58,536 nt of DNA, from sequence record NC_052983.1. One strand, 5' to 3'. Under the pieces are notes generated by a model that saw only the letters and a program-made list of their open reading frames with translations, was not told the DNA's origin and searched no databases. Both the position numbers and the translations under genes were made by a program. This document shows, in pieces, positions 32,544 through 51,328 of this stretch. This DNA comes from Escherichia phage E21. Every line of letters begins with the position of its first letter. Position 1 is the first letter of the stretch.

Positions 32544-32888
32544 CTATTTTTTATCTGCGAGTTTTTGAACGCTAGTTTTAATGTCTCTAAGGTCTTCGCG
32601 AACTTCACCTCGAAACTGGTTTATTTGTTGTGCGGTATTATGTTTTATATCGGCGATTTCCCGCTCGGCTTGCGTTGTTCGTTGTTCTAGGACTCTAACG
32701 TCAGCCGTGACCAACAAAACATCGTTTCTAACATTGCTAAACTGGTTATTAACCCACATTATACCGCTACACAACGCTGCTATTAGCGAAAGGATAGTCG
32801 GGATATTGATCGCCAAGTCAATGCGAACGCCTCCCGTACCTCCATCTCTACCCGCCATATTGCCCCCGTTATCGGTTCTTATATCCAT
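32544..32888 (-). CDS. holin-like membrane protein (1 TM plus coiled-coil)
   Basis: 114 aa; TM INIPTILSLIAALCSGIMWV; first gene of the lysis cassette. Confidence 0.35.
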   Translation of the reverse strand: MDIRTDNGGNMAGRDGGTGGVRIDLAINIPTILSLIAALCSGIMWVNNQFSNVRNDVLLVTADVRVLEQRTTQAEREIADIKHNTAQQINQFRGEVREDLRDIKTSVQKLADKK

Positions 32889-34854
32889 ATATCATCTTAC
32901 ACACGATCCTAACGCGATGTCTCTGCGGTGGGTGTGGCATGTGATATAACGAAGAATCGACGCGCACAACATTTTGATACACGGACGTAGACTTTATGTC
33001 TGAAAGAACTGAGTCTTTATCCGGGTACTCAGCTACCGTTGCCAGCGAAGATGAAACCTGAGCGGAATTAATTCGCGAATAAACCGTACTTTTATCAGGG
33101 TATCTGGCCGAGAACGCAACGTTAGCCGAAGTTTGTGTCGTCAACGATAAGGAGTTTAGCGTATTTGCGGGCAAATAGTTAGCCTTACACGCGATATTTT
33201 GTGTTACTAATCCCGCGAAATCATACATTAAAAACGATTTCACCGGCGGGTAGTCAACCGAGTTAGCGATATTAAATGCTACTAAGTCCGTTTGGCCAAC
33301 TGTCATCGGTAGACGAATATCAGGGTACGATGCCGTTACCGCGATATTTTTAGCTAAACTACCCGTTTCAACATAACTCTGAGGTTCTTCCGTAGACGGG
33401 AACGAACTCGTAACCATGGTGTGTTGCGATAGGCCCGAAATAAAGTCGCCTTTCCTCGCAACTTCGTCCGGAGTTGGCATCGGAGATTTTATCCCGGAAA
33501 CAATGGATAGTGAGGCGACATCTTCCGTAGATATCGGCATACCGTCGTCACGTTTCATCGCAGTAGACGTAACGTATTGAGTAACATGGTTTCCTTTCTC
33601 AAGTTCTACCACGTTATCAAGAGGCGGGTAAAACCGTTTAGGCGCAGTCATCAACGATAGGATCGGTACGGAATACGTTTCGGTGTAACTGTCTTTGTGT
33701 GCCGGCCCGAAGTCCGATTCTAATAACATCGCCACCGTAGCAGACCCTACCGCATTTAAAACGAAGTACGACTCTAGCGGAGGTTGCGGGCTATCTTGTA
33801 CGGCCAAAATATTAACTGACGGTGAAGATATATCTGACCAACTCCATGTTGCGTCGACCCCAATCGCCGATAAGGACACAACGGAACTAACGTCCTCCGG
33901 GGAAATCGGTAGTTCATCAATGACCGACTCAACTTGTGACAATAAAACTTGGCCGACATCAGTATCGGATTGCGGATATACATAATCCGATGACAGAATC
34001 GCTTGAGTGAAAACCTGAGACGATTTCTCCACTCCGACGGTCGGATCATCGCCTACCGGTATCGAGGCTAAACTGACAATCTGAGGGACGTTTTCAACCC
34101 CTACTCGTGCCGGAGGTGTGGACGGGTACGACGACAATTGAACGACACTCCCGGAAGATGTGAAAGAGTTAGGGAGGCCGAACAAATCCGTCGGAACCGA
34201 TGCTAAATGTGTTACCGTACCGACGTCAGCCGGTCTTGTCTCCCATTTTATCGGAGATGAGTAGGAAACCAACGATACAACGCTAGGAGAGTCAACCCCG
34301 GATCTCGGGATATATTCGATATCCAAAGACTGACAAACGAGCATAACCTCGGAACCCATCTCCGTGTTCGACCATGTATCGACCGGGCGGGGTTGCGGTA
34401 GCCCTTGGTTTACGAGGTGGACGTTTTGCCCGATAAACTTCATGGACGTAGTGTCGTATTCCGTACCAACGACCACCAGTTGCGTAAAAGACTTCACATC
34501 AAGTTTAGAGATCGGCAACGCTTCAACCCATGAATAGGTCGCGGTATTTATTACCCCACCAATGATATTGTTTGAAATCTCAAACTGGTACGACGTGTTA
34601 TAGACAACTTGGTTTAGCGCTTGTGGGACAGTAATTACCGTTCTTGCAGTTGAATCGGTACTATATACTATATTAGAAACGACCGACCTAGCACGAAATG
34701 GCGGTATTTGGTAGACCACGTTTCGGTGCTGCGACCGAAAACGCAGTTTCGCGGAGACCTGATATAGAACATTCCGGTGGGTAGACCTTGCCCTAAAGTC
34801 AGGCAAGATCTGATAAACGACAGCCCGCGAAGTGTTCCTTGCGTTGACTGCCAT
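32869..34854 (-). CDS. tail fibre-like protein with N-terminal tandem repeats
   Basis: 661 aa, S/T/V-rich; N-terminal repeats RARSTHRNVLYQV / RFRSQHRNVVYQI / RARSVVSNIVYS. Confidence 0.5.
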   Translation of the reverse strand: MAVNARNTSRAVVYQILPDFRARSTHRNVLYQVSAKLRFRSQHRNVVYQIPPFRARSVVSNIVYSTDSTARTVITVPQALNQVVYNTSYQFEISNNIIGGVINTATYSWVEALPISKLDVKSFTQLVVVGTEYDTTSMKFIGQNVHLVNQGLPQPRPVDTWSNTEMGSEVMLVCQSLDIEYIPRSGVDSPSVVSLVSYSSPIKWETRPADVGTVTHLASVPTDLFGLPNSFTSSGSVVQLSSYPSTPPARVGVENVPQIVSLASIPVGDDPTVGVEKSSQVFTQAILSSDYVYPQSDTDVGQVLLSQVESVIDELPISPEDVSSVVSLSAIGVDATWSWSDISSPSVNILAVQDSPQPPLESYFVLNAVGSATVAMLLESDFGPAHKDSYTETYSVPILSLMTAPKRFYPPLDNVVELEKGNHVTQYVTSTAMKRDDGMPISTEDVASLSIVSGIKSPMPTPDEVARKGDFISGLSQHTMVTSSFPSTEEPQSYVETGSLAKNIAVTASYPDIRLPMTVGQTDLVAFNIANSVDYPPVKSFLMYDFAGLVTQNIACKANYLPANTLNSLSLTTQTSANVAFSARYPDKSTVYSRINSAQVSSSLATVAEYPDKDSVLSDIKSTSVYQNVVRVDSSLYHMPHPPQRHRVRIVCKMIYGYKNR

Positions 34855-34857
34855 GGG

Positions 34858-36498
34858 TTATACCTCTTTCACTGATATACCGTAAGCAGTATTGGATATT
34901 TCTTCAGGAGAGGTGGGGGTTGTATAAGTAATCGTGTGAGCTACGGACGAATAGCGCCCGCCATTCGAAGCCTTTAGTTCGGTAGACCCCAATTCTCTTT
35001 CTCCTAGTAGCGATACGACCTCGCCGTCAGCGGACGGGGCACGAACTATCGATTTTACTTGAACTCCTAAGATATTCCCGGCGAAATCCGGCATAGAACT
35101 ACCATCGGTTTTATACATGTCTCGGTCTCCAGCCCCACCGGATAACTCGGCCCCCTCATCAACAACATTCGACCCCATGGGGGCACCAACCACGCTAGCA
35201 TTAGAATCGAAACTTTGTGGCCGTTTGAATGATGTCTCGATATCCGAGTTAGGAGCGTCTCCCCATACGCGAGTTGACGGCCCGAAGACAACTTCTCCGT
35301 CGGAAGCACTGGACTCCCCTACCACGATATCACTAATCAATACCGGGCCGGACTCCTCCGCCATCTCCGGATAGTGATACGTCGGGTAAACTGACACGTT
35401 GTACTTATGATTCATCTGAAAATTAAACTGCAACCCTGTAAGAAAGTTCTCTGAGTTTACCCGATCCGAAGTAGCTAAATTTGACGTATCCTCGGGCGGA
35501 ATCCAGAACTCGTCATTGGCTCCAGAAACGTTCCAACTGCTGACGGGTTCCCCATCGATGAATACTTTCACGGAGGGTCGAGTTACATAATTGTTTGTAG
35601 CGGAGTTTATCCTCAACAAAATTTCTATATGGTAATCTCGGTCGAACTCAAATTTGAAAAAATGACCGTCTCTCCCCGGTACCGTCGGGTTGGGTATATC
35701 CGTAGCTAATTCGTTGTTAGGTCTTAAGCACACCCACGGAAGACCATCTGAATAAGTGCAAGTCTCCGTATCTCCCGGTGTTCCTGACCCTAGATTTATA
35801 CGTTTAGAACTCCCAAAAATTATATAACTAGCGAAGAACCCCGGACATAAACTGGATAGCCCATAATTCCTCCAGTTAGTTTGGTATCCCGGTCGAACCT
35901 TAATCGACGGGTATCCGACAGAAAAATACCAAGCTAGTCTAGTGGTCTTATCCGTACGTCTATTAAATCTAGCTACAAAAGATATGCTAGTTTGACGCCC
36001 TGCCGGAGCCGATACCGACGGTCTAGGAATGCGATAGCGAATTGAGAAGCAGTTAGGAGACCCCGACCAGTTATCACTGCTACTTGTAGAAGTAAGGGGT
36101 CTACCGACCATCTTTTTTCCGGGGAACATGAAGCGCTTTCTTCCGGGTCTAGTCGGGCAAGGTACAATAGAAAAACCGCTCGGGGATAACTCCGGTCGAA
36201 TACTCGGACTATTGAACGGATACCCGAAAGGGTAGCTAGGCGACCACGGTGCGGATACGGGAGCATAGAGGCCGGAAGCTCTAAAAGTATACAACATAGC
36301 CCCAGTATTACCGCCATTAAATAAGCCACGACTATCTACCGTGAATAGCGGGATCTTAGATACGTCTAGAGAGCCATTAGGAGCGTAAGAATCGTCAGGC
36401 AACCAACTTTCATCGCTATAACCTCCCGTCAACATAGGGTATGTAGCGATGTCTAATTGCTGAAATGATTCGGTGAATAGGATATCAGGTATTGCCAC
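34858..36498 (-). CDS. tail fibre / structural protein
   Basis: 546-aa ORF in the distal tail region, G/S/P-rich. Confidence 0.5.
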   Translation of the reverse strand: MAIPDILFTESFQQLDIATYPMLTGGYSDESWLPDDSYAPNGSLDVSKIPLFTVDSRGLFNGGNTGAMLYTFRASGLYAPVSAPWSPSYPFGYPFNSPSIRPELSPSGFSIVPCPTRPGRKRFMFPGKKMVGRPLTSTSSSDNWSGSPNCFSIRYRIPRPSVSAPAGRQTSISFVARFNRRTDKTTRLAWYFSVGYPSIKVRPGYQTNWRNYGLSSLCPGFFASYIIFGSSKRINLGSGTPGDTETCTYSDGLPWVCLRPNNELATDIPNPTVPGRDGHFFKFEFDRDYHIEILLRINSATNNYVTRPSVKVFIDGEPVSSWNVSGANDEFWIPPEDTSNLATSDRVNSENFLTGLQFNFQMNHKYNVSVYPTYHYPEMAEESGPVLISDIVVGESSASDGEVVFGPSTRVWGDAPNSDIETSFKRPQSFDSNASVVGAPMGSNVVDEGAELSGGAGDRDMYKTDGSSMPDFAGNILGVQVKSIVRAPSADGEVVSLLGERELGSTELKASNGGRYSSVAHTITYTTPTSPEEISNTAYGISVKEV

Positions 36499-36507
36499 AA
36501 TCGCCCC

Positions 36508-37524
36508 CTATCGAGTCACGATGCCGAACTGCAATGCTTCGACAGCGCCTTTATTCCAGTCGGTATTACCCGGAGTTTGTTCGTGGGTAACTTGGTAGTA
36601 TTTATAGTCTTCGGTCAACGGTACTTGGACTTCTTTCTCAGAACCCCCGTCAGTCTGGATCACCATACCGAGTTTGCGGTCGTCTAAGTCCCCTTTACGG
36701 GCATACGCAATCACCGACACGCCGAAAACCTTGTTGTTAGTCGGTAGGATCGTATTAGAACGGAAAATGTCTTTAGCTCCCGACTTGTTAGACTGTAAAT
36801 ACGGTGCGTTAGGTCTCCCCGGCTCCAGTTGGGAGGCAACTTGGTAGTGATTTTCGTTAGTGCCGTTAACGATCTCCCATTCGGTCGTAACATCAGAAGT
36901 AGGAGCGCGGGTAGCAACCTCAATCGGCCCTAGGCGGGAAGTGTTTACCGACCCCGAATCGTCCATAGCGTAAAAATCATCTAGGTACTGGATACCCGCA
37001 TTGGGCGCTGTACCCACTTGCCCCCATACCAGAACGAGTTTTTCAGGCCAAGAAGTAGTAAGGGTCGCCTCGATTTGCTTTTCGTTATTAACCCATACGG
37101 TTACTTTCTTAGCGGACTTATCAAGTTCTATCTCGAAAAAATACCACGCATTAAGGATCAGCGGGTTTACCCCTTTTTGGCCATCAATTTCTAGCTTACC
37201 GTCTTCGCTATCCCACTCCACGTCGACCAAGTTCTCAACCCGACATACTCGCATACGAGAACCATTGGCTTTCATCGCGAAACCGAAACACGCGTAGTTT
37301 CCGGCCGGAGTGAACCCCCATGATAGCGACGCATTGGTTGCGGAGTTACGTTCTACGGTAAATTTAAGGCTCTTAGCGCCGTCACGACGACCTAGGTCAA
37401 TCTGGAACGTATCGTCAGTAGCATTTCGGATATCATACCCGGCTGCTTTTAAGTACGGCTCGACTACGGAACCTTTCTTGCCGATATCTGCGTAGTGGTC
37501 GAAACCGTCTTGATGTTTTAACAT
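36508..37524 (-). CDS. tail-associated protein, paralogue 1 (possible LamG/concanavalin-like lectin fold)
   Basis: 338 aa; shares M..F.DGF, WYFFEIELDK..V.VN and RLGPIEV.TR.PT.DV..EW blocks with the next two genes. Confidence 0.55.
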   Translation of the reverse strand: MLKHQDGFDHYADIGKKGSVVEPYLKAAGYDIRNATDDTFQIDLGRRDGAKSLKFTVERNSATNASLSWGFTPAGNYACFGFAMKANGSRMRVCRVENLVDVEWDSEDGKLEIDGQKGVNPLILNAWYFFEIELDKSAKKVTVWVNNEKQIEATLTTSWPEKLVLVWGQVGTAPNAGIQYLDDFYAMDDSGSVNTSRLGPIEVATRAPTSDVTTEWEIVNGTNENHYQVASQLEPGRPNAPYLQSNKSGAKDIFRSNTILPTNNKVFGVSVIAYARKGDLDDRKLGMVIQTDGGSEKEVQVPLTEDYKYYQVTHEQTPGNTDWNKGAVEALQFGIVTR

Positions 37525-37536
37525 GTGGTGCCCCTT

Positions 37537-38520
37537 TTATGGTCTAATAACTACACCGAACGGAGTTTCAGGGATATTATCGCGATCCCAATTAGCGCCG
37601 AGCGGAGAATTTTCGAATACAGCATAACTTATTTTGTCAGTCAAGGTAAGTTTTTCATCTACCTTTTCCAACTGTTTGTCTTTCTCGCCAACCACCAACC
37701 CGAGTTGTCTATTATCTACGTCAGATTTACGGTTGATCGCGGTGACACTCACGGCCAAGATGTCGCCTTTAGCGTCGAGCGGGATTTCACTTTTGAAAGT
37801 ATCCATCGCGCCGGAGACGTTAGACTGAATATATTCGTCCTCTTTCGGAGGGCGATTACTGACAAGAGACCAGTGGTTATCGCCTTTCGATGGCGACCAT
37901 TCGCTCACCACGTCCACCGTCGGCATTCGGGTGAGTATTTCAATCGGGCCAACTCGGTCAACGTATTTGCCGGCTTGCGCATCGATAAAAACGATATCAT
38001 CTAATTTTTTACCGCCAGAACCGCCCGGCCATTCGCATTTGTAGTCTGTCATGAAACGAACACTATCCGGTAGTTGTCCAGCTAAGTCCGCACCGTTATT
38101 AATAAAAACTTGGAAAGTATTTGTTTCTTTGTTGATGACGATCTCGAAATAGTACCAGATACCTAGGAGCAAGATAGCTTGACCCGTAACACCGGCCAAG
38201 GAGACTTTACCATTGTCGCGGTTCCAAGCGAGCACCCCAAAACCGGGAATACGGATAATATCGTCCCGCACTTTGTCCGCACAATACGCAAAACCGATAA
38301 CCACACGGTTAGTCTCGGAGTTAAAAAGTCGAGACAGTGTTGCCGGGCTTGCTGCGTTCTCGTTTACATCACCTAGGTATAAGCATCGGGTTTCTGTATT
38401 ACGTCCCTCCGCAATACGGATCGGCGGTACTGCGTTGTACCCCGAGTTGTTGAGTAAATTTACCATCTTATCCGACGGCATATCTTTTAGCTGGTCGAAA
38501 CCGTCCATAAATTGCATCAT
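37537..38520 (-). CDS. tail-associated protein, paralogue 2
   Basis: 327 aa; WYYFEIVINK and RVGPIEILTRMPTVDVVSEW blocks. Confidence 0.55.
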   Translation of the reverse strand: MMQFMDGFDQLKDMPSDKMVNLLNNSGYNAVPPIRIAEGRNTETRCLYLGDVNENAASPATLSRLFNSETNRVVIGFAYCADKVRDDIIRIPGFGVLAWNRDNGKVSLAGVTGQAILLLGIWYYFEIVINKETNTFQVFINNGADLAGQLPDSVRFMTDYKCEWPGGSGGKKLDDIVFIDAQAGKYVDRVGPIEILTRMPTVDVVSEWSPSKGDNHWSLVSNRPPKEDEYIQSNVSGAMDTFKSEIPLDAKGDILAVSVTAINRKSDVDNRQLGLVVGEKDKQLEKVDEKLTLTDKISYAVFENSPLGANWDRDNIPETPFGVVIRP

Positions 38521-38530
38521 AATTAAGCCC

Positions 38531-39451
38531 TTACGCTTTTAGAGTTATTCCGAAAGTTGAGTCCGGTATTACGTGCTCCGGGAGCACTCCAAGTTCTGAG
38601 TAGCGGTACTCCCAATCACGAGGTAACGTAGCTTCGTTTTTAACTAGCTCGTTTGTGAACACATCTACGCTAACTGGATCTACGGTGGCTTTTCGGAGGA
38701 GTGTTATCACCGAAACACCTTTTACTTCTGTCTCCTCTGATAGCACGGTTTCCGAGGTGAAAGAATCCGTAGCACCATTCGTCCCCGTATAGATGAACCG
38801 GTCAACTAAGTTCGGTAGTGCGGGAGCTACGACCTCATGGTGAGATTCCCCACCGGAAACACCCCAATCTTTCGATACGTCTTTCGTCGGAACGCGAGTA
38901 GTGACGGTGATAGGCCCGACTCTCGTAGTGTCGGCATAATACAAGTCATCGAAGCGAATGTCCGCAAAATCCGACTCGTCGAAGTCCCGCAATGTTATTG
39001 TGAGCGTGTCTGCCGTCGCTACGCCATCTGGTATCGAAACCGTAATGTCTTTTTTACCATTGATATAGACGTCGGCCGTCTTTGCGTCTTTGTTTACTTC
39101 CACTTCTAGATAGTACCAGTTGTTACGCAATGGGATAACGTAACCTGACTCTCCCTCGGACTGTAATAACCCTGTGGTCTGGTCTACACCAACTTTAAGC
39201 GTACTATCCCCGCCTGAGATGCCTACGAGATTTCCTCTCGTGGTCATATTGAACGCGAAACCTACGGTAAAATTGCCGGTATCAGATGGGAAATCTCGGG
39301 ATATTCGACCTCGGCCGAGTAGGACGCTTGCGCCGTTCTTACGTCCTGCGCCGAAGCCGAAAGACCCCGAAACGGTATACCCGGCTCTACGCATGAAAGC
39401 CGGGGAATCCCCATCGAAGGCGAACTGTTCGAACCCCTCGAAGAAAAACAT
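38531..39451 (-). CDS. tail-associated protein, paralogue 3
   Basis: 306 aa; WYYLEVEVNK and RVGPITVTTRVPTKDVSKDW blocks. Confidence 0.55.
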   Translation of the reverse strand: MFFFEGFEQFAFDGDSPAFMRRAGYTVSGSFGFGAGRKNGASVLLGRGRISRDFPSDTGNFTVGFAFNMTTRGNLVGISGGDSTLKVGVDQTTGLLQSEGESGYVIPLRNNWYYLEVEVNKDAKTADVYINGKKDITVSIPDGVATADTLTITLRDFDESDFADIRFDDLYYADTTRVGPITVTTRVPTKDVSKDWGVSGGESHHEVVAPALPNLVDRFIYTGTNGATDSFTSETVLSEETEVKGVSVITLLRKATVDPVSVDVFTNELVKNEATLPRDWEYRYSELGVLPEHVIPDSTFGITLKA

Positions 39452-40194
39452 TAAGCCCCCTGAATCATTAATCTAATAATAAAGCCGAAGTTAACGGCTG
39501 AGTCGATTGTATCAACCGGAGCTAAGATTGTCAGCCTGTCACCTTTGAAAAATCTCACGGCAACGCTACCAGACGTCACGAAAGTGGCGTTATATTGCCC
39601 CCGATCGACAGTGAATGTGCCGACAGTTTGGTTATTTCTCTGCACAGTGAACTTAGCTTTATCGAGAAAAGCACTACGGGCGTCGAATTGAGATTGTGCC
39701 ATGTTAGCCGGTAGGTACATATTGTCGATAATTGGCAAGTGTACGAGCACTTCCGATGGATACATCTTCTCCGAAATAGTCGCGGATACATCAAACGCCA
39801 TAGGTACAACATCGGGAGATGGGTTAGGGTTGATCGGGTCAACTCCGGTATTCTCAATACGCCACGTCTCCCCGTCCCACCAGATAAACTCACTGGTCGG
39901 GTCTAAGAATGCTCGCCAACCTCGTTTGGGTTCGATGAATTGCCACACGCCGTCGATCAATACGGCCAGTTTTCTTTCTTGGCCAACCCAAGGGCCAGTC
40001 GGGTTTTTATAGATAAAATAGGTGTCGCCGTTTTTAGCGTCAGCCGGTGGCGCACTAAACGTGATAGATTGTAGGCGTAGAAACGTAACAGTATCTAAGG
40101 TGGTTAGCGTCTCGTTCATTGGGCCACCCCAAAAATCCTCGCCTCTCACCCAACCATAGGAAAGCCCCATGTTAGGGGCAATTTTCATTGGCAT
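39451..40194 (-). CDS. hypothetical tail protein downstream of J-like gene
   Basis: 247 aa; ATGA overlap with J-like gene. Confidence 0.45.
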   Translation of the reverse strand: MPMKIAPNMGLSYGWVRGEDFWGGPMNETLTTLDTVTFLRLQSITFSAPPADAKNGDTYFIYKNPTGPWVGQERKLAVLIDGVWQFIEPKRGWRAFLDPTSEFIWWDGETWRIENTGVDPINPNPSPDVVPMAFDVSATISEKMYPSEVLVHLPIIDNMYLPANMAQSQFDARSAFLDKAKFTVQRNNQTVGTFTVDRGQYNATFVTSGSVAVRFFKGDRLTILAPVDTIDSAVNFGFIIRLMIQGA

Positions 40195-43100
40195 TATTCA
40201 GTATCCTCTTTGACGTCTTGGTCTGGTAGTCGTTCCGCCCAATCATGATCCCACTTGTTTGACCAACCGGCAACAACCAACGGTGGCGGAGGCTCGACCG
40301 GATCAGGGTCAGGGTTGCCCGGATTAGGTTCTGGATCAGGGTTGCCCGGGTCGGGGTCGGGGTTCGGTCTATCAGGCTGACCCGGATCTGGATTGCCGGG
40401 GTTCGTACCACCGCCAGTTCCGCCACCGCCAGTTTCGCCACCGCCAGTTCCCGGGTCAGGTCTTCCCGGATTGGGGTCAACATCTCGCTTGGCCGGAATT
40501 GAGGGTACTTTACACTGAGTATTATATCCTTGCCAGCTACTAAGCTCGTTTTCATCGACAGCGGATACCGTGATCGAAACATAGACGTAGCCGGTGGATT
40601 CCGTCAAGATCCCTACTCGTCTGCCGAACGCGTGTAAGTCTTCGGCCTTGATCGTCATTCCTGCGTCGCGAGTATAATACGTCCCCATGGTGATAGTAAC
40701 TGTGCGATTGCTGTATCTAGGAGTATATCGTTTCCCGATCCACACTCGATACATTACGTCGCTTGGCCGTTGTTGTCCCACATCAAGATGGTCTAACACG
40801 GTTTCCCCTTGACGAACTCGGTTACGGTGCGCCCACGTCATCACTAAGTCTTTGCCTTGCGGGTCATAGTAGTCAAAGTTATCGGCCAGTGCGTCCCACC
40901 CTTTGAAAAAGTGCTCACCGTTGCCGAGCAAGAACCCCGGTGGATATGGTCTATCCGCGCGTAGTTTCACTTCCAGTTGTTTGTTTACCACGTCTTTAGG
41001 CTGGATTTCTGCTGCGAGAGAATGAGGCCTTACGGCAACTACGCAAGTCTGGCCGTCGTGATATTTACGTTGCCCGGAAGCTATTTGTTTGTCGACAAAC
41101 CACACAACTTGACCTTTCCCATGAAGTGCGGGGATTGTATCAACACAACCACGGCCAACCGTAATACGTTTACCATCGATGCCCCGGATCACCATCGCTT
41201 CGGCTCCGACGAAAATCACGTCGCCCGGCATCGCGTCCTCAGTAGGAACCCCGTCAGAATCCGACGTAGCATCGAGGATTATCTCATTATCCAGATATGA
41301 GATTGCCTTAGACAGAATCCCCCACGGCGTCCACGGTTGCGCCCCTTGGTTCACGTACTCTGTATCGTTCTTCTCTTTCTCGAACAAATCGTACCCGTCG
41401 GTTACACGGTCTGACGGTCTAGCTACCGTAGCGAAGAATTGTGAGGCGGACGGTTCGAACCCATGGCGTAGCAACATTAAGTAAGGGAACTCAAACAGTT
41501 GGCTATCTACGATAGGAACTAATTTGCCTTGTTGCGAAACCGGTTGTCGCACATAGCTAACATTCACGCCATCAGGTAGGCCCCCGCCACCGGAAGATAG
41601 ATCTTCGCTCTCCTGTGCTACGGATTGGTTGACAAAACTAACCATGGCTTTTGCGTCTACGGCCGTCTCTCCGTCTTTATCTTCGGGGTCGATTTTATCG
41701 GACACCTGAGCGACAGATTGGTTTAAGAAACTAACATACGCCATTTGAGGCGGTTTCTTGAAAACGGTGATCGGTATTAAGTAGTTTTGCCACGATTCGA
41801 ACCCGTCGCGCATAGACTCTAATCTCAAGTACCCAGCAACCGGATCTATGGCTGACGCTTCCACGTTCAAATCTAGGCTCGCTTGGCCGTAAGTGTAGAC
41901 AAACTGTGTGCCGGTAATCCCGTTTTCTCTGCGGATTACTTCACCCTTAGCGTTTAGGATACTAATTCGGTATGTCGTTCCCGGCTCCGGCCCGATACTA
42001 TCTTGCTCATGATAAATAGGCTTGTCTTGTTGCATCGGTCTATCTCGGTGCGCCCACGTTATCGTCAAGGCGTCAGGCACTTCGGCCTCTCCGACGTCCG
42101 CTCGTAAAACATGGCCATTAAACCAAGGGTTCGGTTCCGTGCTTTCCACTGAGGTGAGTTCTACTTTACCCGGAGCGTATGGGCGGTAGAATCGGTAATT
42201 GAAAGTCAGTTCATCTTCGGACACGTTAGACTCGTCGAGAACCCCACCCGATAGCGTCCATGGGAGTATCTTCACCGATAAGGTTTCTCCCGCTTGTCGG
42301 GTTGTCAGGTCAAGCCCGCCACCTTGAACCATATCCCACACTACGGAGCCAGCGGGGTGTTGGTGAGGTACGGTGTCGTACACGCCTCGACGTATTTCGA
42401 CTAACCCGTCTTCCTCGATAGACTGGATCATGATTATTTCTTGGTTGACGTAAAAAACGTCCCCGACTTCAATCAAGTCTTCATCTACCGGATCTTTCAT
42501 TCGGATATAGCGGTCTAAATATCCAAGGTCAACCGGTAATTCGAATAGCGCAGTGAAATCCCCCGCACCTGTTTTCTCATACTTTCCAGTGGTCGGGTTT
42601 TGGACGTGCATCTCGAACGCCATCGTTACCGGTGAGCCTTTTTCCGCCTGTGCCCGCAAATACCCGAAAGACGGCTTGATGGCCTCAAACTCTCCTAGTG
42701 GGAATAGGGACGACAATTCTGCGTATGTCGCCTCATAAACTAAACGTCTGGCCGGAACCGGGTTTAGGTTCGGTTTAGGGAAAGACGGGTCTTGAACACC
42801 AGTAAACGTGTTCAGGTCGAACGAGAACGTGTCTTGTACGCAAGATAATCGTATCTGACCATCGGATTGTTTACTCTCCTCTGTGTCCGCTACACGAACG
42901 ATTACGCTCTCAAGTCCGCGTGTCTTTGGGTCGGAAATCTTCAAAACGTCTCCCGGTTGTACTCGCCATGCTCGACGGTCACAAACTAGGGTGAACCGGC
43001 GGACGTTAGTAGACGCAACACGTAAGTCTCTTTCTGCTATGATAGTGGCCAGTTTTGCGGTTGGCACCCCCTCATACGTGAATGTGTCGCTTTTGATGGC

Positions 43101-44015
43101 GCCGGAAGTCTGAATCAGGGCTAGGTTCTGTGCTCGAACTTGACTCTCTTTACCGACGATCGGGTTGAACCATTTAACGACACACTCATTCATCAGACCA
43201 TGGATTGCGCCGTTAGTCGCTTCCTCGATTTGTAGTAACCCGCTCTCAAAACCGTACACCGGCAAGTTATCCGCATCGTAGTCATTACGAAGTAACTTGA
43301 GTTTGAAAGTACCGGTAAACTTATCGACGTATAACACGCCTGAAATGTGGTTAAGTATATTCTGGATAAAAGACTCTAGGGTGTCTTGGCGTCTCCACGC
43401 AATACAGATCCCGAACCCCTCCTCGAACAACGTATCGGCCACCTTTCGGAACTCCGAGTCAAACAGTAGGTCACGAGAGATACCTCGGCCCCAATCTCGG
43501 TTTGTCATACACTCGTAAATAACGTGAGCCGGGTTCATCGCCTTGATGGGATACTCTTTCCCCTCGTCATCGTGGCCGGTAAGTTCTATGACCGCTTTTT
43601 CCGGATACCACACCCCACCGTCCCAACCTTTTAAGATGCGACGTATTTTAAATCGCCACGCTTTCGGGTATGGGTTCATGGCCGACACTAAACCATCGAA
43701 ATAGCCGGTAGCTACTCCGCGAAACTCCGGTTGGCTCCCACCGCCCAACATGGATTTAAGTTTGTCGCTAACGACCTGATCCTTATCGCCCATGTAGAGT
43801 TCGAAACCACCCTCAATGCCTCCCTCCGCTTTCTTACCCCCGAAAAGATTTTCAGCCCGTATCCGAAAGAACGAGGACTCTTTAACGGAACCACGCCAAG
43901 CGGTTCTTCCGCCGACCTCGATTTCCATCAATTCATCAATAGGGCCACGGCCGATCCCCATGTGTAGCCCCATATAGTAGGAGTAGCCGGCCGTCGCCTT
44001 TTTAAATTTACCCAC
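40194..44015 (-). CDS. host specificity / central tail fibre protein (lambda gpJ-like) with C-terminal Pro/Gly/Asn-rich repeat
   Basis: 1273 aa; size and position after tail-tip genes; low-complexity C-terminus (PNPGRPDPGTGGGETGGGG...PDPDP). Confidence 0.75.
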   Translation of the reverse strand: MGKFKKATAGYSYYMGLHMGIGRGPIDELMEIEVGGRTAWRGSVKESSFFRIRAENLFGGKKAEGGIEGGFELYMGDKDQVVSDKLKSMLGGGSQPEFRGVATGYFDGLVSAMNPYPKAWRFKIRRILKGWDGGVWYPEKAVIELTGHDDEGKEYPIKAMNPAHVIYECMTNRDWGRGISRDLLFDSEFRKVADTLFEEGFGICIAWRRQDTLESFIQNILNHISGVLYVDKFTGTFKLKLLRNDYDADNLPVYGFESGLLQIEEATNGAIHGLMNECVVKWFNPIVGKESQVRAQNLALIQTSGAIKSDTFTYEGVPTAKLATIIAERDLRVASTNVRRFTLVCDRRAWRVQPGDVLKISDPKTRGLESVIVRVADTEESKQSDGQIRLSCVQDTFSFDLNTFTGVQDPSFPKPNLNPVPARRLVYEATYAELSSLFPLGEFEAIKPSFGYLRAQAEKGSPVTMAFEMHVQNPTTGKYEKTGAGDFTALFELPVDLGYLDRYIRMKDPVDEDLIEVGDVFYVNQEIIMIQSIEEDGLVEIRRGVYDTVPHQHPAGSVVWDMVQGGGLDLTTRQAGETLSVKILPWTLSGGVLDESNVSEDELTFNYRFYRPYAPGKVELTSVESTEPNPWFNGHVLRADVGEAEVPDALTITWAHRDRPMQQDKPIYHEQDSIGPEPGTTYRISILNAKGEVIRRENGITGTQFVYTYGQASLDLNVEASAIDPVAGYLRLESMRDGFESWQNYLIPITVFKKPPQMAYVSFLNQSVAQVSDKIDPEDKDGETAVDAKAMVSFVNQSVAQESEDLSSGGGGLPDGVNVSYVRQPVSQQGKLVPIVDSQLFEFPYLMLLRHGFEPSASQFFATVARPSDRVTDGYDLFEKEKNDTEYVNQGAQPWTPWGILSKAISYLDNEIILDATSDSDGVPTEDAMPGDVIFVGAEAMVIRGIDGKRITVGRGCVDTIPALHGKGQVVWFVDKQIASGQRKYHDGQTCVVAVRPHSLAAEIQPKDVVNKQLEVKLRADRPYPPGFLLGNGEHFFKGWDALADNFDYYDPQGKDLVMTWAHRNRVRQGETVLDHLDVGQQRPSDVMYRVWIGKRYTPRYSNRTVTITMGTYYTRDAGMTIKAEDLHAFGRRVGILTESTGYVYVSITVSAVDENELSSWQGYNTQCKVPSIPAKRDVDPNPGRPDPGTGGGETGGGGTGGGTNPGNPDPGQPDRPNPDPDPGNPDPEPNPGNPDPDPVEPPPPLVVAGWSNKWDHDWAERLPDQDVKEDTE
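40293..40494 (-). repeat. coding low-complexity repeat (PNPG/PDPG units) at C-terminus of the J-like protein
   Basis: Repeated GGATCAGGGTTGCCCGG-like units visible in the DNA. Confidence 0.6.
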
Positions 44016-44465: not shown

Positions 44466-45281
44466 TTAGTAAACCGGATTTCCGTCAAACGGAGAACGCC
44501 CCGGCATTGATGGTATTCCGCCATAATTAGCGAGGTTATTAAACTTATCTCGGCAAGATGCCACGGTTCGAGGACAGCCGGGAAATACCTTTATGATCAT
44601 TCCGCCGGTAATTCCGCCCACGGTTCCGAAAATTTCTATTGAGTCGTAGCTGTGTGCCTGAATAGCGCGTCTCTCCACCCCGCGGAGTTTATCTACCCAT
44701 TCGATGTATCCGCCGGCGAAATAGGATTCCCCGTAAGGTGCTAAATCCTTAGACATGATATTGTTTGACCCGACGCTTTGTATCGTAGCTTCGACCATAA
44801 ACTCGGCCGGGTTTACGCCACATGACGAATTGTATAACGCGTGGGGGCACGAGCGAGACCACGCTAAACGTAAACCGTTTTGCTCCATCGACGCGGAAAG
44901 GGTGTTACACGTAATCTTAGCTGCGGCAGCGTTAGCAGTATCTAGTTGTAGCACTTCGCCGACGTAACAGACGGCTGCTTCGGTATCGCCACGGTGGAAC
45001 CTGCGGATCTTTAACGTTACTGCATTGATTGGTGGTGTGCCCCGGAACAAATCGACTATTACCGCCGACTGAGGCATTAAGATGGTTAGGCTATCCGATT
45101 GGGCGTCACTTGTTTGGCGTATCCCGTCATCTTCCATGGGGGTGCCAAGCCAAGTTTGCCCTAACATCTGGATATCTTTTTTAGCGGAAGTGTATCGCCA
45201 ATAATTGTCGTTCAGCCGAAACTCATATAAGTAAATCGGCTGACCGTCATCAGTGGATATTTCTAGTTGATTATATGCCAT
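44466..45281 (-). CDS. minor tail protein (gpL / BR0599-like position)
   Basis: 271 aa with Cys-containing C-terminus; between distal tail protein and J-like gene. Confidence 0.45.
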   Translation of the reverse strand: MAYNQLEISTDDGQPIYLYEFRLNDNYWRYTSAKKDIQMLGQTWLGTPMEDDGIRQTSDAQSDSLTILMPQSAVIVDLFRGTPPINAVTLKIRRFHRGDTEAAVCYVGEVLQLDTANAAAAKITCNTLSASMEQNGLRLAWSRSCPHALYNSSCGVNPAEFMVEATIQSVGSNNIMSKDLAPYGESYFAGGYIEWVDKLRGVERRAIQAHSYDSIEIFGTVGGITGGMIIKVFPGCPRTVASCRDKFNNLANYGGIPSMPGRSPFDGNPVY

Positions 45282-46996: not shown

Positions 46997-49900
46997 TTAT
47001 GTCCTCTTAGAGCTTCCGCGATTTAATATGCTACGGATCGCGGGTGATTTTCGGTTTAAGTTAACAATCATAACCTGCTCGCCCTCGGCCGTTGCCATGG
47101 CTTCCGGTATCTTGCTACGGTCATCAACTGCTACTAGTTTGATGTTTGTCGGGCCGGCTTGTCCTCCCGGTCTTGCTGCCTGTCCGCCATTTGCGATATT
47201 TCTAGGGTCGTTCTTGGATAAGACTTCTTCCCCTCGCTCTAATATTGTCGGTATTTCGTTAGGCTTAATTCCGGGCATTCCCCCGTTATGGAACTTCGGA
47301 GCCGATGCAAATGTAGAGGGAGCCACGGTTCTAGACCTACCTCCGCTCCCGACCGCACCGCCGGAGTGTTTTACCGGGGCTACCACACCGCCCATCGATA
47401 CTGCTGCTGCTCCTACCCCTCCACCCATGCCGGCTATCGCATTGAGTACCATTTGTTGCATTATTGCCATAGCTATTTGTTTTAGGAAATCTGCGAAAAA
47501 CTGAGCCACTGCGACGCCTAGGTTTGCGAATGCGTCTCCGATACTTTCTGCCCCAGTTGCGACTTTAACGATCCCATCATAAGCCGAGTTGATCGCCGTG
47601 TCGAAACCTCCTAGAACCCCGTTTACAACTTGGCTGTCTAGTTTAGTGAATTCACCCTCAACGCCTTGTAGTTCGGAACGTATTTTACTAATACCAGTTG
47701 TTATCCGGACTAGTTCTTCTTCACTGAATAATGTAGATGACTGCGCCACTTGGTTGCTAAGAGCGTCTAGTGATGAAGATATCGCCCCTATTGACCCCTC
47801 ATTTATGGCCTTGATCGCGTCAGCTTGTTGCTGGTCATCAATCAAGCCCGCTTTTCTTTTGGCGTTGATTTCTTCAATCTTGTTCTTTTTGATCTCTAAT
47901 TGCGCATTAACTGCATCTTGAAGACGCTTAACCTCCTCGACTTGCATTTTCTCTGAGAGATAGAGGTTTGTTTTCTCTCGTAGCTTCTCCAAGTTGTCGG
48001 CCAGTTGTTTGCCCTCTTGTCCGCCTATGGCTAGGGCCTCTTTTTTCAACGCATTAATCTTAACGTTTGACTTCTCGATCTCCGCGTTAATTCGGTCATC
48101 GAGAGACGACTCCGGATCAGCCTTAGTTTGACGTCTGTTAACTTCTGCGTTCATTCTTTCAAGCGCTTGCGTGATAGCATCGATCTTGCGCTTACGCTTA
48201 TCTAGGCCACCGCTAGAACTTTGTTGAGCATTGAATAGCATCGTCTCTGACCGTTTCGCGTGAGCTACTAGGTCGTCGATTTGCTTTTTCATCTCGTCGC
48301 CCTCTTTGCCACCGATGGCTTTCGCTTTTTCATACATCTTAGCGTATTCTTCATCGATGATTTGTAGGCGTCCTGCGAGGCTCTTACGTTGTGCTGCTTT
48401 TCTGGCTGCTAGGTCGGCTTTCTCCTCCGCGTTCTGGCGTTTCTCGATCTCCTTTTTCAACGCACGCATGTCGAGGTCTCTTTGACCTATTCCCGTTCCG
48501 GGGTCTTTCTGAAACTCGAATCCGCTTTGTTTCTTGGCTAACTGTTCTGCAGCCTTGCTCACCAGTTCCATTGAACCGATTACGGCTCCGGCGGTCTTTC
48601 CGGCATTGTCTGCCACCGTTTCCATGGCTTTTTCGTGGACATAAGATACGTCGCCGGTCATCTTATCCCAATTGTCTACGATATCTTTGCTGAGCTTATT
48701 CGAAGACTCGAATATCTCACGGTCAGCTTTCGTCAGGTCGTCAGTAATACCCATGACCCATGCGCTTAGTGAGTCCCCCACCACAGGTAACATTCCTAAC
48801 AGGTCTGCCAACCACTTGCCAACTTGTTTGATGGAATCACCGAACAACGTAGTTATTGGCCTGACGAACGACACTAATAAATCATATATCGCAGTACCCG
48901 GTACTTTCGCATAATCGATTAGCATCTTGCCGAGGTACTTAGCCCGCTCGATCGTCTCGTCGCAAAACTTCCGGAACGCTTCGTTGTTCTCGTAGAGAAT
49001 GGAAACCATATCCCACGCTAACAGGGCCACCCCGACAAACGGTATCGCTCTTAGTAGAAGTTTCAGCGCACCGGTGAGTAGTCCTGTGCTAGCAATTAGA
49101 GATCCGATACCTCCTACCAAGCGTTTTCCTAGAGGCAATACCGTTGAAATGACGCCCTTAACTTCCTTGAATACGGATATCAAATTCCGGCCGGTGGATA
49201 CTAAGATCTTTATCACCTTTATCGATGCTAAGACCTTTAGGGCGTCTATTAGTAGGTCTACATTATCCACGGCCCATATCACCCCGTCGGCAATCGCGGA
49301 GAACGCTGTTCCGAGTTTTTCGGCTGCTTCTTTACCTCGGTCTGATGTGATGAACTCCGTCAGTTTCTCCAACATCGAGGTATACGCTTCGATGAACCCG
49401 GATTTTGATATCGCCAGTTTGAGGTTGAACATCGCATTTGATGCTCTAGCTTCGATCGCATCTACGCCTTTTTGCGCTTCGGCGAGTTGCGCTTCGATAG
49501 CTTTGCCTTGTTCGTTCGCGAAGTTAATCACGGATCTGGCGTCTACCTCGCCATTCTCCATCATCTTTGTAAATTCGGGTATGGTCTTACCTAAACTTTT
49601 CGCGAACATCGCTACGGCGCCGGGGAGACGTTCACCTAATTGTTGCCTCAACTCCTCTGCATAAACTTGTCCTTTCGAGAGCATTTGTTCCAAGGCCAAG
49701 AACACGCCGTTCATATCATCGTCGGATAGGTGATATACGCGAGCCGTCTTTGCGATATTCTCAAAGATAAATTTAGCTTCTTTCTGCGATAGGCCTACTT
49801 CCTTAGCCGATACCGCAAACTTGGTATATGCCTTACTTAGTGTTTCAATTTTAATACCGAGCGCATCTGAGAGGCCTAACATATACTCCCATTCTTTCGC

Positions 49901-51328
49901 TCGTTCTTCCGGGCCAGACCCCACCACCGTTCCGATTTTAACCATGGCTTGTTGTTGAACCTTAAAGGCCTCTACCGCACCTTTCGCCATGTCTACGGCG
50001 CCTTGAACCCCGATGTAGGCTGACGCCAGACTAAGAACGTCACCACGCATTCTCTGCATGAATGACAACGTGGTACGTCCCTCGTCTCGGAAGAATGAAA
50101 AGGCTTTGCCGGAAGATCGGGCGCTACCGGACAACCGCTCTAACGATGCTCGGAGGTTATTAATACCGCCCACCGAGTTTTGTACTAATCCCCGGAGTCG
50201 TTGTTGTTCCGCTCCTAGGTTTCTAGTATCAATACCGGCTGACCGTAACGCGGATTGAGTCTGTCTAGCGGAAGCCGTTTCATTCCGTAACGCTTGGCTT
50301 GCTTCGCGTAGTCGAGCATTAGACGCTTGAAGTTTTGCGCCCATCTCGGCATTCGCTGTGCCGGCTTGTCTTACCTGATTTGCTAAGTTCTTAGCGTCGG
50401 CCTGTGCTGATCGGTATTCCGCTCTCGCTTTTCTCACCGCTTCGGTTTGACGTTGGAAAGTCTCGATCATGCGGGACATTCCTATCGCCGATTTCGCGGA
50501 GGCTTCTAGGGCCTTTAGGTCTGAATTCATACCGCTAGCGTCTTTGCGCCAACGTTTTGATGCCGTAGCTAAATCGTTTATCTGTTTTTCTAGTGTACCT
50601 ATCTTACGCCTAGCTGCTTCTGCCGGAGCCATCAAGTCGGCCATTTGCCCGGACATTGACGGTAAAGACGAGATCACTCGGCCAAGTGTTTGATAGCCTT
50701 TCGTGCTCGCTACCAGTTGGTTTGCTTGTAACTTCAAACTTGCTAGTAGTTGGGCGTGGGCTTTCTGTGCGCGAGTCGGCACGTCACCTATGATCTTCTC
50801 TTGGCGGGCTAGCGCTTGGTTTGTCCGGGTTACTTCATCACGTATTCTTTTCTGTGCGGTCGCAATATCATTCGACGAAATCCCGAAACGAGATAGTTCC
50901 TTGGCGGTCTTTTGTACGCTCTTGGTCGACCGGTCTTGTTGGTCGGTCAAACGCTTTACCGCTCGTTCTGCTTTGTCTAAGTCGGACTGCATTTTCTTAG
51001 TGACATTAGACGCACCGTTCATAGCGGAGGAAAGGTCACTATGTTTTTTCTTGGCTTCGGCCAATTGAGTGTTTACCTTATTAAGCGCCTCTTTCTGGCG
51101 GGTAAACATCTCTGTTAAAGAATTAAGCCGGAGCAATTGTTGTCCGGCATTCTCTAATTTCTTATATTGTTGTTCTAGTTCTCTGACCGAAGCGTCACCT
51201 CGTTTCGCTGCGTCCGCGTTACGGGTCTGCGCCGATGTTAAGTCATCTAACGTCTTTGATACTTGCTTTAGCGTTTTCTGACTATCATCTCTGGCTCTGA
51301 TCCGTAGTTCTACGTCTCTATTTGCCAC
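46997..51328 (-). CDS. tail tape measure protein
   Basis: 1443 aa, coiled-coil rich; GTG start with RBS AAAGGGG; downstream of G/GT chaperone. Confidence 0.9.
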   Translation of the reverse strand: MANRDVELRIRARDDSQKTLKQVSKTLDDLTSAQTRNADAAKRGDASVRELEQQYKKLENAGQQLLRLNSLTEMFTRQKEALNKVNTQLAEAKKKHSDLSSAMNGASNVTKKMQSDLDKAERAVKRLTDQQDRSTKSVQKTAKELSRFGISSNDIATAQKRIRDEVTRTNQALARQEKIIGDVPTRAQKAHAQLLASLKLQANQLVASTKGYQTLGRVISSLPSMSGQMADLMAPAEAARRKIGTLEKQINDLATASKRWRKDASGMNSDLKALEASAKSAIGMSRMIETFQRQTEAVRKARAEYRSAQADAKNLANQVRQAGTANAEMGAKLQASNARLREASQALRNETASARQTQSALRSAGIDTRNLGAEQQRLRGLVQNSVGGINNLRASLERLSGSARSSGKAFSFFRDEGRTTLSFMQRMRGDVLSLASAYIGVQGAVDMAKGAVEAFKVQQQAMVKIGTVVGSGPEERAKEWEYMLGLSDALGIKIETLSKAYTKFAVSAKEVGLSQKEAKFIFENIAKTARVYHLSDDDMNGVFLALEQMLSKGQVYAEELRQQLGERLPGAVAMFAKSLGKTIPEFTKMMENGEVDARSVINFANEQGKAIEAQLAEAQKGVDAIEARASNAMFNLKLAISKSGFIEAYTSMLEKLTEFITSDRGKEAAEKLGTAFSAIADGVIWAVDNVDLLIDALKVLASIKVIKILVSTGRNLISVFKEVKGVISTVLPLGKRLVGGIGSLIASTGLLTGALKLLLRAIPFVGVALLAWDMVSILYENNEAFRKFCDETIERAKYLGKMLIDYAKVPGTAIYDLLVSFVRPITTLFGDSIKQVGKWLADLLGMLPVVGDSLSAWVMGITDDLTKADREIFESSNKLSKDIVDNWDKMTGDVSYVHEKAMETVADNAGKTAGAVIGSMELVSKAAEQLAKKQSGFEFQKDPGTGIGQRDLDMRALKKEIEKRQNAEEKADLAARKAAQRKSLAGRLQIIDEEYAKMYEKAKAIGGKEGDEMKKQIDDLVAHAKRSETMLFNAQQSSSGGLDKRKRKIDAITQALERMNAEVNRRQTKADPESSLDDRINAEIEKSNVKINALKKEALAIGGQEGKQLADNLEKLREKTNLYLSEKMQVEEVKRLQDAVNAQLEIKKNKIEEINAKRKAGLIDDQQQADAIKAINEGSIGAISSSLDALSNQVAQSSTLFSEEELVRITTGISKIRSELQGVEGEFTKLDSQVVNGVLGGFDTAINSAYDGIVKVATGAESIGDAFANLGVAVAQFFADFLKQIAMAIMQQMVLNAIAGMGGGVGAAAVSMGGVVAPVKHSGGAVGSGGRSRTVAPSTFASAPKFHNGGMPGIKPNEIPTILERGEEVLSKNDPRNIANGGQAARPGGQAGPTNIKLVAVDDRSKIPEAMATAEGEQVMIVNLNRKSPAIRSILNRGSSKRT

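Follow-up and report, generated by a model that had tools for sequence, protein, structure and literature searches.

How does a phage tail-tip protein that ends in a long disordered stretch relate to the proteins encoded directly after it? The question is raised by a J-like protein of 1273 amino acids (aa), encoded on the minus strand (40194..44015) of the 58,536-nucleotide (nt) sequence of Escherichia phage E21 (NC_052983.1), here termed the window. A sequence-only reading of the window had pointed out that this protein finishes in a Pro/Gly/Asn/Asp-rich linker rather than a globular domain, and had suggested that receptor recognition might be delegated to the downstream proteins, with the linker as a flexible tether. 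Beyond the linker lies a conserved 15-residue peptide, GWSNKWDHDWAERLP. By analogy with the solved tail tip of phage JBD30, this peptide probably docks the 247-aa DUF2793 protein encoded by the next gene, and does so on a flexible tether; we put the probability of this reading at roughly 0.68. It is based on the conservation of the peptide, on its co-occurrence with DUF2793 genes and on the homology of the hub to the JBD30 structure.

The open reading frame of the J-like protein is intact, with a GTG start and a TAA stop that overlaps the ATG of the 247-aa gene. The latter starts on the last base of the stop codon (40194), placing the DUF2793 gene immediately downstream. PF13550 (Phage-tail_3) is found at aa 210–376 with 30.5 bits against a cutoff of 23, and phrog_6284 (annotated as 'tail protein') matches from end to end. 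Chi gp30 is 42% identical over the full length by BLASTP. A phmmer search against the PDB aligned aa 3–1265 with residues 4–1284 of Chi gp30 (8VJH_A, E = 0), the C-terminal extension included, and matched the hub of JBD30 (8RK3_o) with E = 1.5e-120. Judged from its sequence, the J-like protein is an unremarkable orthologue of Chi gp30 (BH2P), a protein already studied. In 8VJH 769 of the 1296 residues of Chi gp30 are modelled, and the C-terminal extension is therefore unresolved in that structure. This agrees with the description of the Chi-type C-terminal region as 'too flexible to be analyzed' (PMC12264135).

From the N terminus the chain begins with the hub core (aa 1–745). Short hub proteins of ~720–750 aa are homologous to this part with 34–40% identity, and those of ~737 aa cover 55–60% of the query. 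The remainder (aa 745–1273) was modelled with AlphaFold2 as a single chain from a 50-sequence alignment, giving a mean predicted local distance difference test score (pLDDT) of 78.8. The core is followed by a segment predicted to be disordered (aa 745–827, within linker 1), and the chain then enters a beta-rich globular region (aa ~834–1184, pLDDT >90) that we term module 2. A second disordered segment (aa 1191–1250) belongs to linker 2, after which aa 1251–1262 (WSNKWDHDWAER) form a short helix with a block-mean pLDDT of 74–78. Apart from this 12-residue helix no ordered domain is predicted past aa ~1184. The view that the protein has no globular C-terminal domain thus holds for the end of the chain, but it overlooked the globular module at aa 834–1177 and the conserved motif beyond the linker.

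The model of module 2 matches the JBD30 hub and Chi gp30 in Foldseek, at only 20% identity, and BLASTP of the J-like protein against itself aligns aa 865–1076 with aa 457–669 (28% identity, E = 2e-13; 40485-41516 against 41781-42726). From these two matches module 2 is an internal duplication of the distal domains of the hub (aa ~430–745). The lambda protein gpJ has the role of trimeric tip, and carries a globular C-terminal receptor-binding domain that binds LamB. The J-like protein resembles it in containing PF13550 and in its position after the tape measure and hub genes, but differs in ending with a disordered linker and a 28-aa tail in place of a globular receptor-binding domain at the extreme C terminus.

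The peptide is the best-conserved part of the C-terminal region among 50 homologues (26–67% identity). Mean pairwise identity in the 50-sequence alignment is 0.59 for the terminal motif and 0.40 for module 2. W1251 and W1259 are invariant, while D1256 is conserved in 94%, A1260 in 92% and H1257 in 88% of the homologues. Some 64 full-length homologues (35–99% identity) always end in [G]W[SG]xx[WY]DHxWAxxLP, with the linker sequence in front of it differing freely. The peptide is periodic (G1250-W1251...W1255...W1259), with hydrophobic residues at i, i+4 and i+8 after the glycine. The W1251/W1255/W1259 spacing recurs in many short hubs of ~720–750 aa, where the tail follows directly upon the last domain. 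Such tails are GWGLNWGNDFGGQ in BcepNazgul, GYGSGYGYSYGGV in Ab18, GLGNNLGNYLGGL in PAE1, GYGNGYGFGYGV in N133 and GLGFRLGEELGG in Pseudomonas aeruginosa prophages. A role of the motif as a Shine–Dalgarno sequence or other nucleotide-level signal for the next gene was rejected; it lies 42–69 nt upstream of the stop codon and its W/Y/F/L substitutions are at the protein level.

Hubs without the motif carry other tails, for example LLRTEVGDDLVTEAGDFILAD in Lysobacter, and are followed by other genes. Short hubs with no DUF2793 gene downstream often end in a tail of the LLRTEvGDdLVTEAGDfiL- or RITEDGxxRVTEDG-type (L005, L026, L029, L097, L105, L110, L113–L116 and other prophages). These tails may be alternative docking peptides for a different downstream protein.

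A structural precedent for docking exists in JBD30, where the C terminus of the hub docks into the centre of a helical bundle formed by the thigh domains of a DUF2793 trimer (PMC11445458). The JBD30 hub, gp53 (8RK3 chain o), ends ...ERHGLGFRLGEELGGVS, i.e. HGLGFRLGEELGGVS, with the peptide GLGFRLGEELGG. Its receptor-binding protein, gp54, is deposited as a 'DUF2793 domain-containing protein' and matches the DUF2793 profile. The J-like protein and gp53 therefore have in common a homologous hub body, a C-terminal peptide of hydrophobic periodicity and a DUF2793 protein encoded next. In JBD30 the peptide directly follows the last hub domain and three receptor-binding-protein trimers form a rigid tripod, whereas in the J-like protein the two are separated by the duplicated module and a disordered linker of 68 aa, the motif is built on Trp, and further paralogous genes lie downstream.

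The association of peptide and partner is general among related loci. We collected 80 viral loci and 73 from bacterial genome contigs, 139 of which were assessable. The motif, a C-terminal G-Φ-x3-Φ-x3-Φ peptide on the hub, was scored within the last 30 aa, and a DUF2793 gene was scored if its start lay ≤500 nt downstream. Counts are given in the order motif and DUF2793, motif only, DUF2793 only, neither. Pooled, they are 53/0/1/85 in the 139 loci (p = 6e-38, for loci that are non-independent), so that presence or absence agrees in 138 of 139. With the final pattern the viral loci give 38/0/0/31. A strict pattern gave 35/0/3/36, and it was relaxed after it had left three discordant viral loci; because this was done with the discordance in view, the viral counts are partly fitted. 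Taken by 70%-identity cluster, the viral loci give 19/0/3/26 (Fisher p = 1.3e-10). The bacterial genome contigs give 15/0/1/54, with some lineages recurring from the viral set. On a tree of the hub N-terminal part, a rough phylogeny made by the unweighted pair group method with arithmetic mean on p-distances, motif and DUF2793 each undergo about 10 changes, always jointly. Locus L056 has both motif and DUF2793 and is 79% identical in the hub body to L061 and L063, which have neither.

In one lineage of viral contigs (L064, L069, L186–L191 and L197) the J-like protein is divided among three genes in a row, whose products measure ~500, ~620 and ~815 aa. The first has a Pro-rich end. The last finishes in a Pro-rich linker and AAHWDLNWDRHWDAY, still directly before the DUF2793 gene.

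The arrangement proposed for the tail tip is as follows. Residues 1–745 of the trimeric hub would form the conical tip, from which each subunit would extend a flexible arm comprising the linker at aa 746–833, the module at aa 834–1177, the linker at aa 1178–1245 and finally GWSNKWDHDWAERLP. As a helix, the latter would be the counterpart of the G-Φ-G-x-x-Φ-G-x-x-Φ-GG tail of the short hubs such as JBD30 gp53, which in JBD30 is inserted centrally in the three-helix bundle of the N-terminal DUF2793 'thigh' domains of the receptor-binding-protein trimer. The peptide would hold the 247-aa DUF2793 protein, with its C1q-like head, as a trimer. We infer physical docking with a stoichiometry of one hub peptide per DUF2793 trimer and three per virion. 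The plug would not sit on the last hub domain but at the end of a long flexible tether, and given the length and predicted disorder of the linker the DUF2793 knob is expected to be mobile in the virion rather than held in a rigid tripod.

Several observations weigh against this arrangement. The motif is of a Trp type unlike the Gly-rich tail of JBD30, and it is not at the very end of the chain, with 9–14 further residues following. Locus L129, a contig of a Janthinobacterium metagenome-assembled genome, is the sole DUF2793-positive locus lacking the hub motif, in any frame; it may have a truncated hub or a different mode of attachment. In electron micrographs Chi-like phages have a single long fibre, which is not the obvious appearance of three tethered knobs. 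The 3′ end of the hub gene adjoins the next gene, so exchange of the two as a single recombination cassette would create co-occurrence, and the association could partly be linkage of this kind. Lastly, a peptide is not the sole way of holding such a fibre, since phages related to RcGTA do so by a globular domain. The 'megatron' of RcGTA g15 and R4C (6TEH-series, 8GTC) resembles the J-like protein as a tip protein of three-fold symmetry with a DUF2793 fibre gene after it, and its fibre-binding part is placed on a linker and can be mobile. That part is a globular C-terminal domain (aa 985–1304 in RcGTA) on a linker of ~20 residues, in contrast to the linker and peptide of the J-like protein, and RcCronus gp18 is without the terminal aromatic motif. 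A PDB sequence search with the J-like protein gave no megatron match at E ≤ 1e-3.

In the alternative that fares best, the thin flexible fibre that binds the receptor (the flagellum) would be the J-like protein's own C-terminal half, Pro-rich stretch included, and the motif would serve in trimerisation, capping or contact with the receptor. For phage YSD1, immunogold assigns the long flexible fibre to YSD1_29, described as an identical homologue of Chi BH2P, and antibodies against YSD1_29 block infection; the fibre evidence, from immunogold and small-angle X-ray scattering, concerns YSD1 only (PMC12264135). The flexibility of the C-terminal half fits such a fibre, as do relatives with a compact J-like protein that are without a long one; the Klebsiella phages PIN1 and PIN2 are described in this way. 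Of the ~525 residues per chain, though, more than half lie in a compact module, and alone they are too short for the ~220 nm fibre of Chi. The alternative also leaves unexplained the tracking of motif and DUF2793 in short hubs that have neither extension nor fibre. We therefore regard it as unlikely in place of docking, while it is compatible with docking, in that downstream proteins could be strung on the J-like protein. In N133, a Casjensviridae relative with a compact hub (755 aa), the motif sits directly on the hub; a DUF2793 protein and a putative large spike are also encoded, but no paralogues.

It is considerably less probable that the Trp-rich peptide is membrane active, perhaps entering the outer-membrane interface on infection, or an intramolecular latch upon module 2, its association with DUF2793 being mere genetic linkage. 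It is common for amphipathic peptides rich in Trp to partition into membrane interfaces, single-chain modelling already gives the helix moderate confidence, and the cassette exchange considered above would give co-occurrence. Yet variants with Tyr and Gly (GYGSGYGYSYGG) or Leu and Gly (GLGFRLGEELGG) occupy the same position and are not like membrane peptides, while the JBD30 structure places the tail inside the receptor-binding-protein trimer. The agreement of nearly all loci and the repeated joint changes on the hub tree are also hard to obtain by linkage in the absence of selection.

The linker proposed as the tether of the docking peptide is real, and slightly longer than the ~65 aa first estimated. 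Linker 2 comprises 68 residues, of which 56 are P, G, N or D; elsewhere in the protein these four make up 24.8% (binomial p = 3e-23). The linker has a net charge of −11. After it come 28 residues (LVVAGWSNKWDHDWAERLPDQDVKEDTE) and not the ~35 of the sequence-only reading, which rightly saw a short tail but missed the strongly conserved motif within it. All 50 homologues have linker 2, with length and composition kept and sequence variable. The span from the invariant Y1164 to W1251 is 82–121 aa. The median composition over the homologues is 30% Pro, 16% Gly, 18% acidic and 3% basic, and the mean pairwise identity of the positions other than P and G is 0.30. The suggestion of a flexible tether is supported by the predicted disorder (pLDDT <50), by this conservation of length and composition and by the unmodelled C-terminal half of Chi gp30. 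Its putative role in holding the 247-aa protein, by analogy with the related hubs, is well supported by inference.

At the nucleotide level linker 2 contains a 15-nt tandem repeat (40408-40451), and in an alignment of four related Lavrentievavirus genomes the sole insertions or deletions in the last ~370 nt of the gene are in Gly and Pro tracts. That the stretch is neutral low-complexity DNA expanded by slippage, with no role as a spacer, might be read from these two features, but is hardly credible given its retention down to 26% identity, its bounded length, its consistently acidic, Pro-rich and hydrophobic-poor composition, and its presence in the split-gene lineage too. One deposited genome (OR506460.1) has a 4-nt insertion in the Gly-rich tract (equivalent to ~40395-40420), which shifts the frame and truncates the annotated coding sequence; this is either a sequencing error or repeat slippage. 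An alternative-frame open reading frame of 136 aa (40172-40582) was rejected as an overlapping gene, being a by-product of the repetitive GC-rich stretch.

The sequence-only reading correctly described the 247-aa gene and three paralogues downstream. The paralogues are genuine, all belonging to phrog_2448 and being 27–31% identical to each other (E 1e-28 to 1e-46). The 247-aa protein has an N-terminal 'thigh' attachment domain (aa 1–118) and a C-terminal jelly-roll head of the C1q/TNF type (aa ~133–244). Its AlphaFold2 model has a pLDDT of 86, with one helix per monomer in the N-domain (aa 25–36). In Foldseek the N-domain matches the fibres of 7-7-1 and R4C and the C-domain matches trimeric C1q/TNF-like heads, while the DUF2793 profile matches 8GTC_S (the R4C fibre, E = 2e-12) and 8RK3_a. 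Of the structures matched by the N-domain, the tail fibre of Agrobacterium phage 7-7-1 (PDB 9RKV) ranks first; this phage is also flagellotropic but has a different morphology.

DUF2793 proteins in general are described as having hypervariable C-termini. The 247-aa protein is unlike these in being conserved throughout. Its 38 homologues in related phages, including Cronobacter phage JC01, are full length, all of 244–248 aa and 41–80% identical. With this conservation, and 51% identity to Chi gp31, it seems closer to a conserved adaptor or knob than to a determinant of specificity. Divergence from Chi rises along the operon, and the two distal proteins of 546 and ~661 aa are the most divergent. 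Being barely alignable with their Chi counterparts, these appear from their sequences to be better candidates for host specificity. A search of the PDB gave no matches for the 338-aa paralogue, the ~661-aa protein or a 69-aa protein encoded upstream of the J-like gene. Delegation of receptor recognition to the downstream proteins is thus not established, in view of the conservation of the 247-aa protein, the gradient of divergence along the operon and the published assignment of the fibre to the J-like protein.

Linker 1 contains three tandem motifs of ~12 aa, counted by eye. Each of the 47 other homologues inspected likewise has three such repeats, against two in a Castellaniella lineage (P0066/P0067); within one phage the repeats are more alike than across phages. 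The Castellaniella prophage lineage with two repeats has two paralogues, and all loci with three repeats have three. The phrog_2448 paralogues are found only beside long hubs. The split-gene lineage has three repeats and three paralogues, the middle one of about twice the normal size, while L193, a lineage of two paralogues, is ambiguous. The match in number (3/3 and 2/2) suggests the repeats as docking sites for the paralogues. The J-like protein may then, as a tentative proposal drawn from sequence comparison, be a multivalent scaffold on which, per arm, each of the three linker-1 repeats recruits one of the paralogues and the Trp helix recruits the DUF2793 trimer. As a part of that proposal, and no more probable, the long Chi-like fibre would be built by stringing separately encoded globular proteins upon disordered hub tethers. 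The proposal is weakened by there being a single clear 2/2 lineage, that of Castellaniella, with L193 ambiguous, and by the repeats having been counted by eye.

The principle of docking is known from JBD30, and the C-terminal half has already been described as flexible. We did not find stated in the literature, with the Chi structure paper (Sonani et al. 2024) outside its scope, a general rule linking the peptide to DUF2793, a plug carried by a conserved disordered tether in phages of the Chi type, or the correspondence of repeats and paralogues. The last of these is more novel than the docking observation.

The window is that of a PM87-like, Chi-like Proteus siphophage (Casjensviridae, Lavrentievavirus). 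About 26 deposited Proteus phage genomes of 58–59 kb (for example PM87, PLY284 and NotEvenPhaged) are 97–99% identical to it in nucleotide sequence across the 3.8-kb region, and PM87 is classified in Casjensviridae, Lavrentievavirus. Casjensviridae is the family that includes the flagellotropic Salmonella phage Chi. Genomes 97–98% identical to Proteus phages have been deposited with the host labels Enterococcus, Pseudomonas, Salmonella and Staphylococcus (OR506460.1, PV596763.1, OR699184-7 and others). With near-identical tail genes these labels are improbable, and may be mis-assignments.

The tail genes run along the minus strand in the order tape measure protein, 562-aa distal-tail-type protein, 271-aa hub of the BR0599/gp84 type, 78-aa and 69-aa genes, J-like protein, DUF2793 protein, the paralogues of 306, 327 and 338 aa, and the 546-aa and ~661-aa proteins (Table 1). 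The J-like gene thus lies after those for the tape measure, the distal tail protein and the BH1P/gpL-like hub. The neighbourhood is the same in Chi (tape measure, distal tail protein, BH1P, two small genes, J, DUF2793, three paralogues, two larger genes), and Chi gp30/YSD1_29 (8VJH) shares the order of modules, the Pro-rich linker and a GWSxxWDHGWA tail. The phage differs from Chi in host genus and in its genus-level taxon, Lavrentievavirus. The linker sequence is unrelated except in composition, and the gp35- and gp36-like genes are barely similar. The 271-aa hub protein, of the BR0599/phiJL001-gp84 type, has four cysteines in two CxxxxxxxC/CxxxxxC-like pairs (CPHALYNSSC ... CPRTVASC), which resemble the Fe–S cluster site described for lambda gpL and the hub proteins of RcGTA and R4C.

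Table 1. Features of the tail-tip region, in window coordinates
Feature	Position	Strand	Evidence or remarks
Tape measure protein	46997-51328	-	
271-aa BR0599/phiJL001-gp84-type hub protein	44466-45281	-	
J-like tail-tip protein (BH2P/Chi gp30 orthologue, judged by sequence), 1273 aa	40194..44015	-	PF13550, phrog_6284, Chi gp30, 8VJH_A, 8RK3_o
Hub core, aa 1-745	41781..44015	-	aligned to JBD30 hub residues 4-717; equals short hubs and the modelled part of Chi gp30
Linker 1, aa ~746-833, predicted disordered, three ~12-aa motifs	41517..41780	-	AlphaFold2 pLDDT 33-44
Linker-1 repeat, aa 759-770	41706-41741	-	AYVSFLNQSVAQ
Linker-1 repeat, aa 790-801	41613-41648	-	AMVSFVNQSVAQ
Linker-1 repeat, aa 817-828	41532-41567	-	VNVSYVRQPVSQ
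Module 2, aa ~834-1177, globular beta module	40485..41516	-	AlphaFold2 pLDDT >90, Foldseek, internal BLASTP
Linker 2, aa 1178-1245, acidic, Pro/Gly/Asn/Asp-rich	40281..40484	-	composition, pLDDT <50
C-terminal peptide GWSNKWDHDWAERLP, aa 1250-1264, proposed DUF2793-docking helix	40224..40268	-	conservation, co-occurrence, JBD30 precedent
247-aa DUF2793 protein (Chi gp31 orthologue)	39451..40194	-	PF10983 E=3e-23, 51% identical to Chi gp31
N-domain of the DUF2793 protein	39841-40194	-	best structural match 9RKV
Paralogue 1, 306 aa, Chi gp32-like	38531..39451	-	phrog_2448, 33% identical to Chi gp32
Paralogue 2, 327 aa, Chi gp33-like	37537..38520	-	phrog_2448, 46% identical to Chi gp33
Paralogue 3, 338 aa, Chi gp34-like	36508..37524	-	phrog_2448, 59% identical to Chi gp34
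546-aa distal tail gene, Chi gp35-like	34858-36498	-	30% identity to gp35 over 113 aa
~661-aa distal tail gene, Chi gp36-like	32869-34857	-	27% identity to gp36 over 508 aa

For the window itself this is mainly a result of annotation. If docking is true, many siphophage hubs share a rule by which a short C-terminal peptide specifies the downstream fibre or receptor-binding module that is attached, and the peptide seems to be swapped along with its partner gene. There would then be a handle at the level of sequence with which to predict or re-engineer the composition of the tail tip, for example in swapping receptor-binding modules in therapeutic phages of Proteus, Salmonella or Pseudomonas. 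In its tethered version the arrangement could account for the difficulty of resolving the distal half of the Chi tail tip by cryo-electron microscopy, and suggests places at which attachment of the unassigned gp31–gp36 proteins might be sought.

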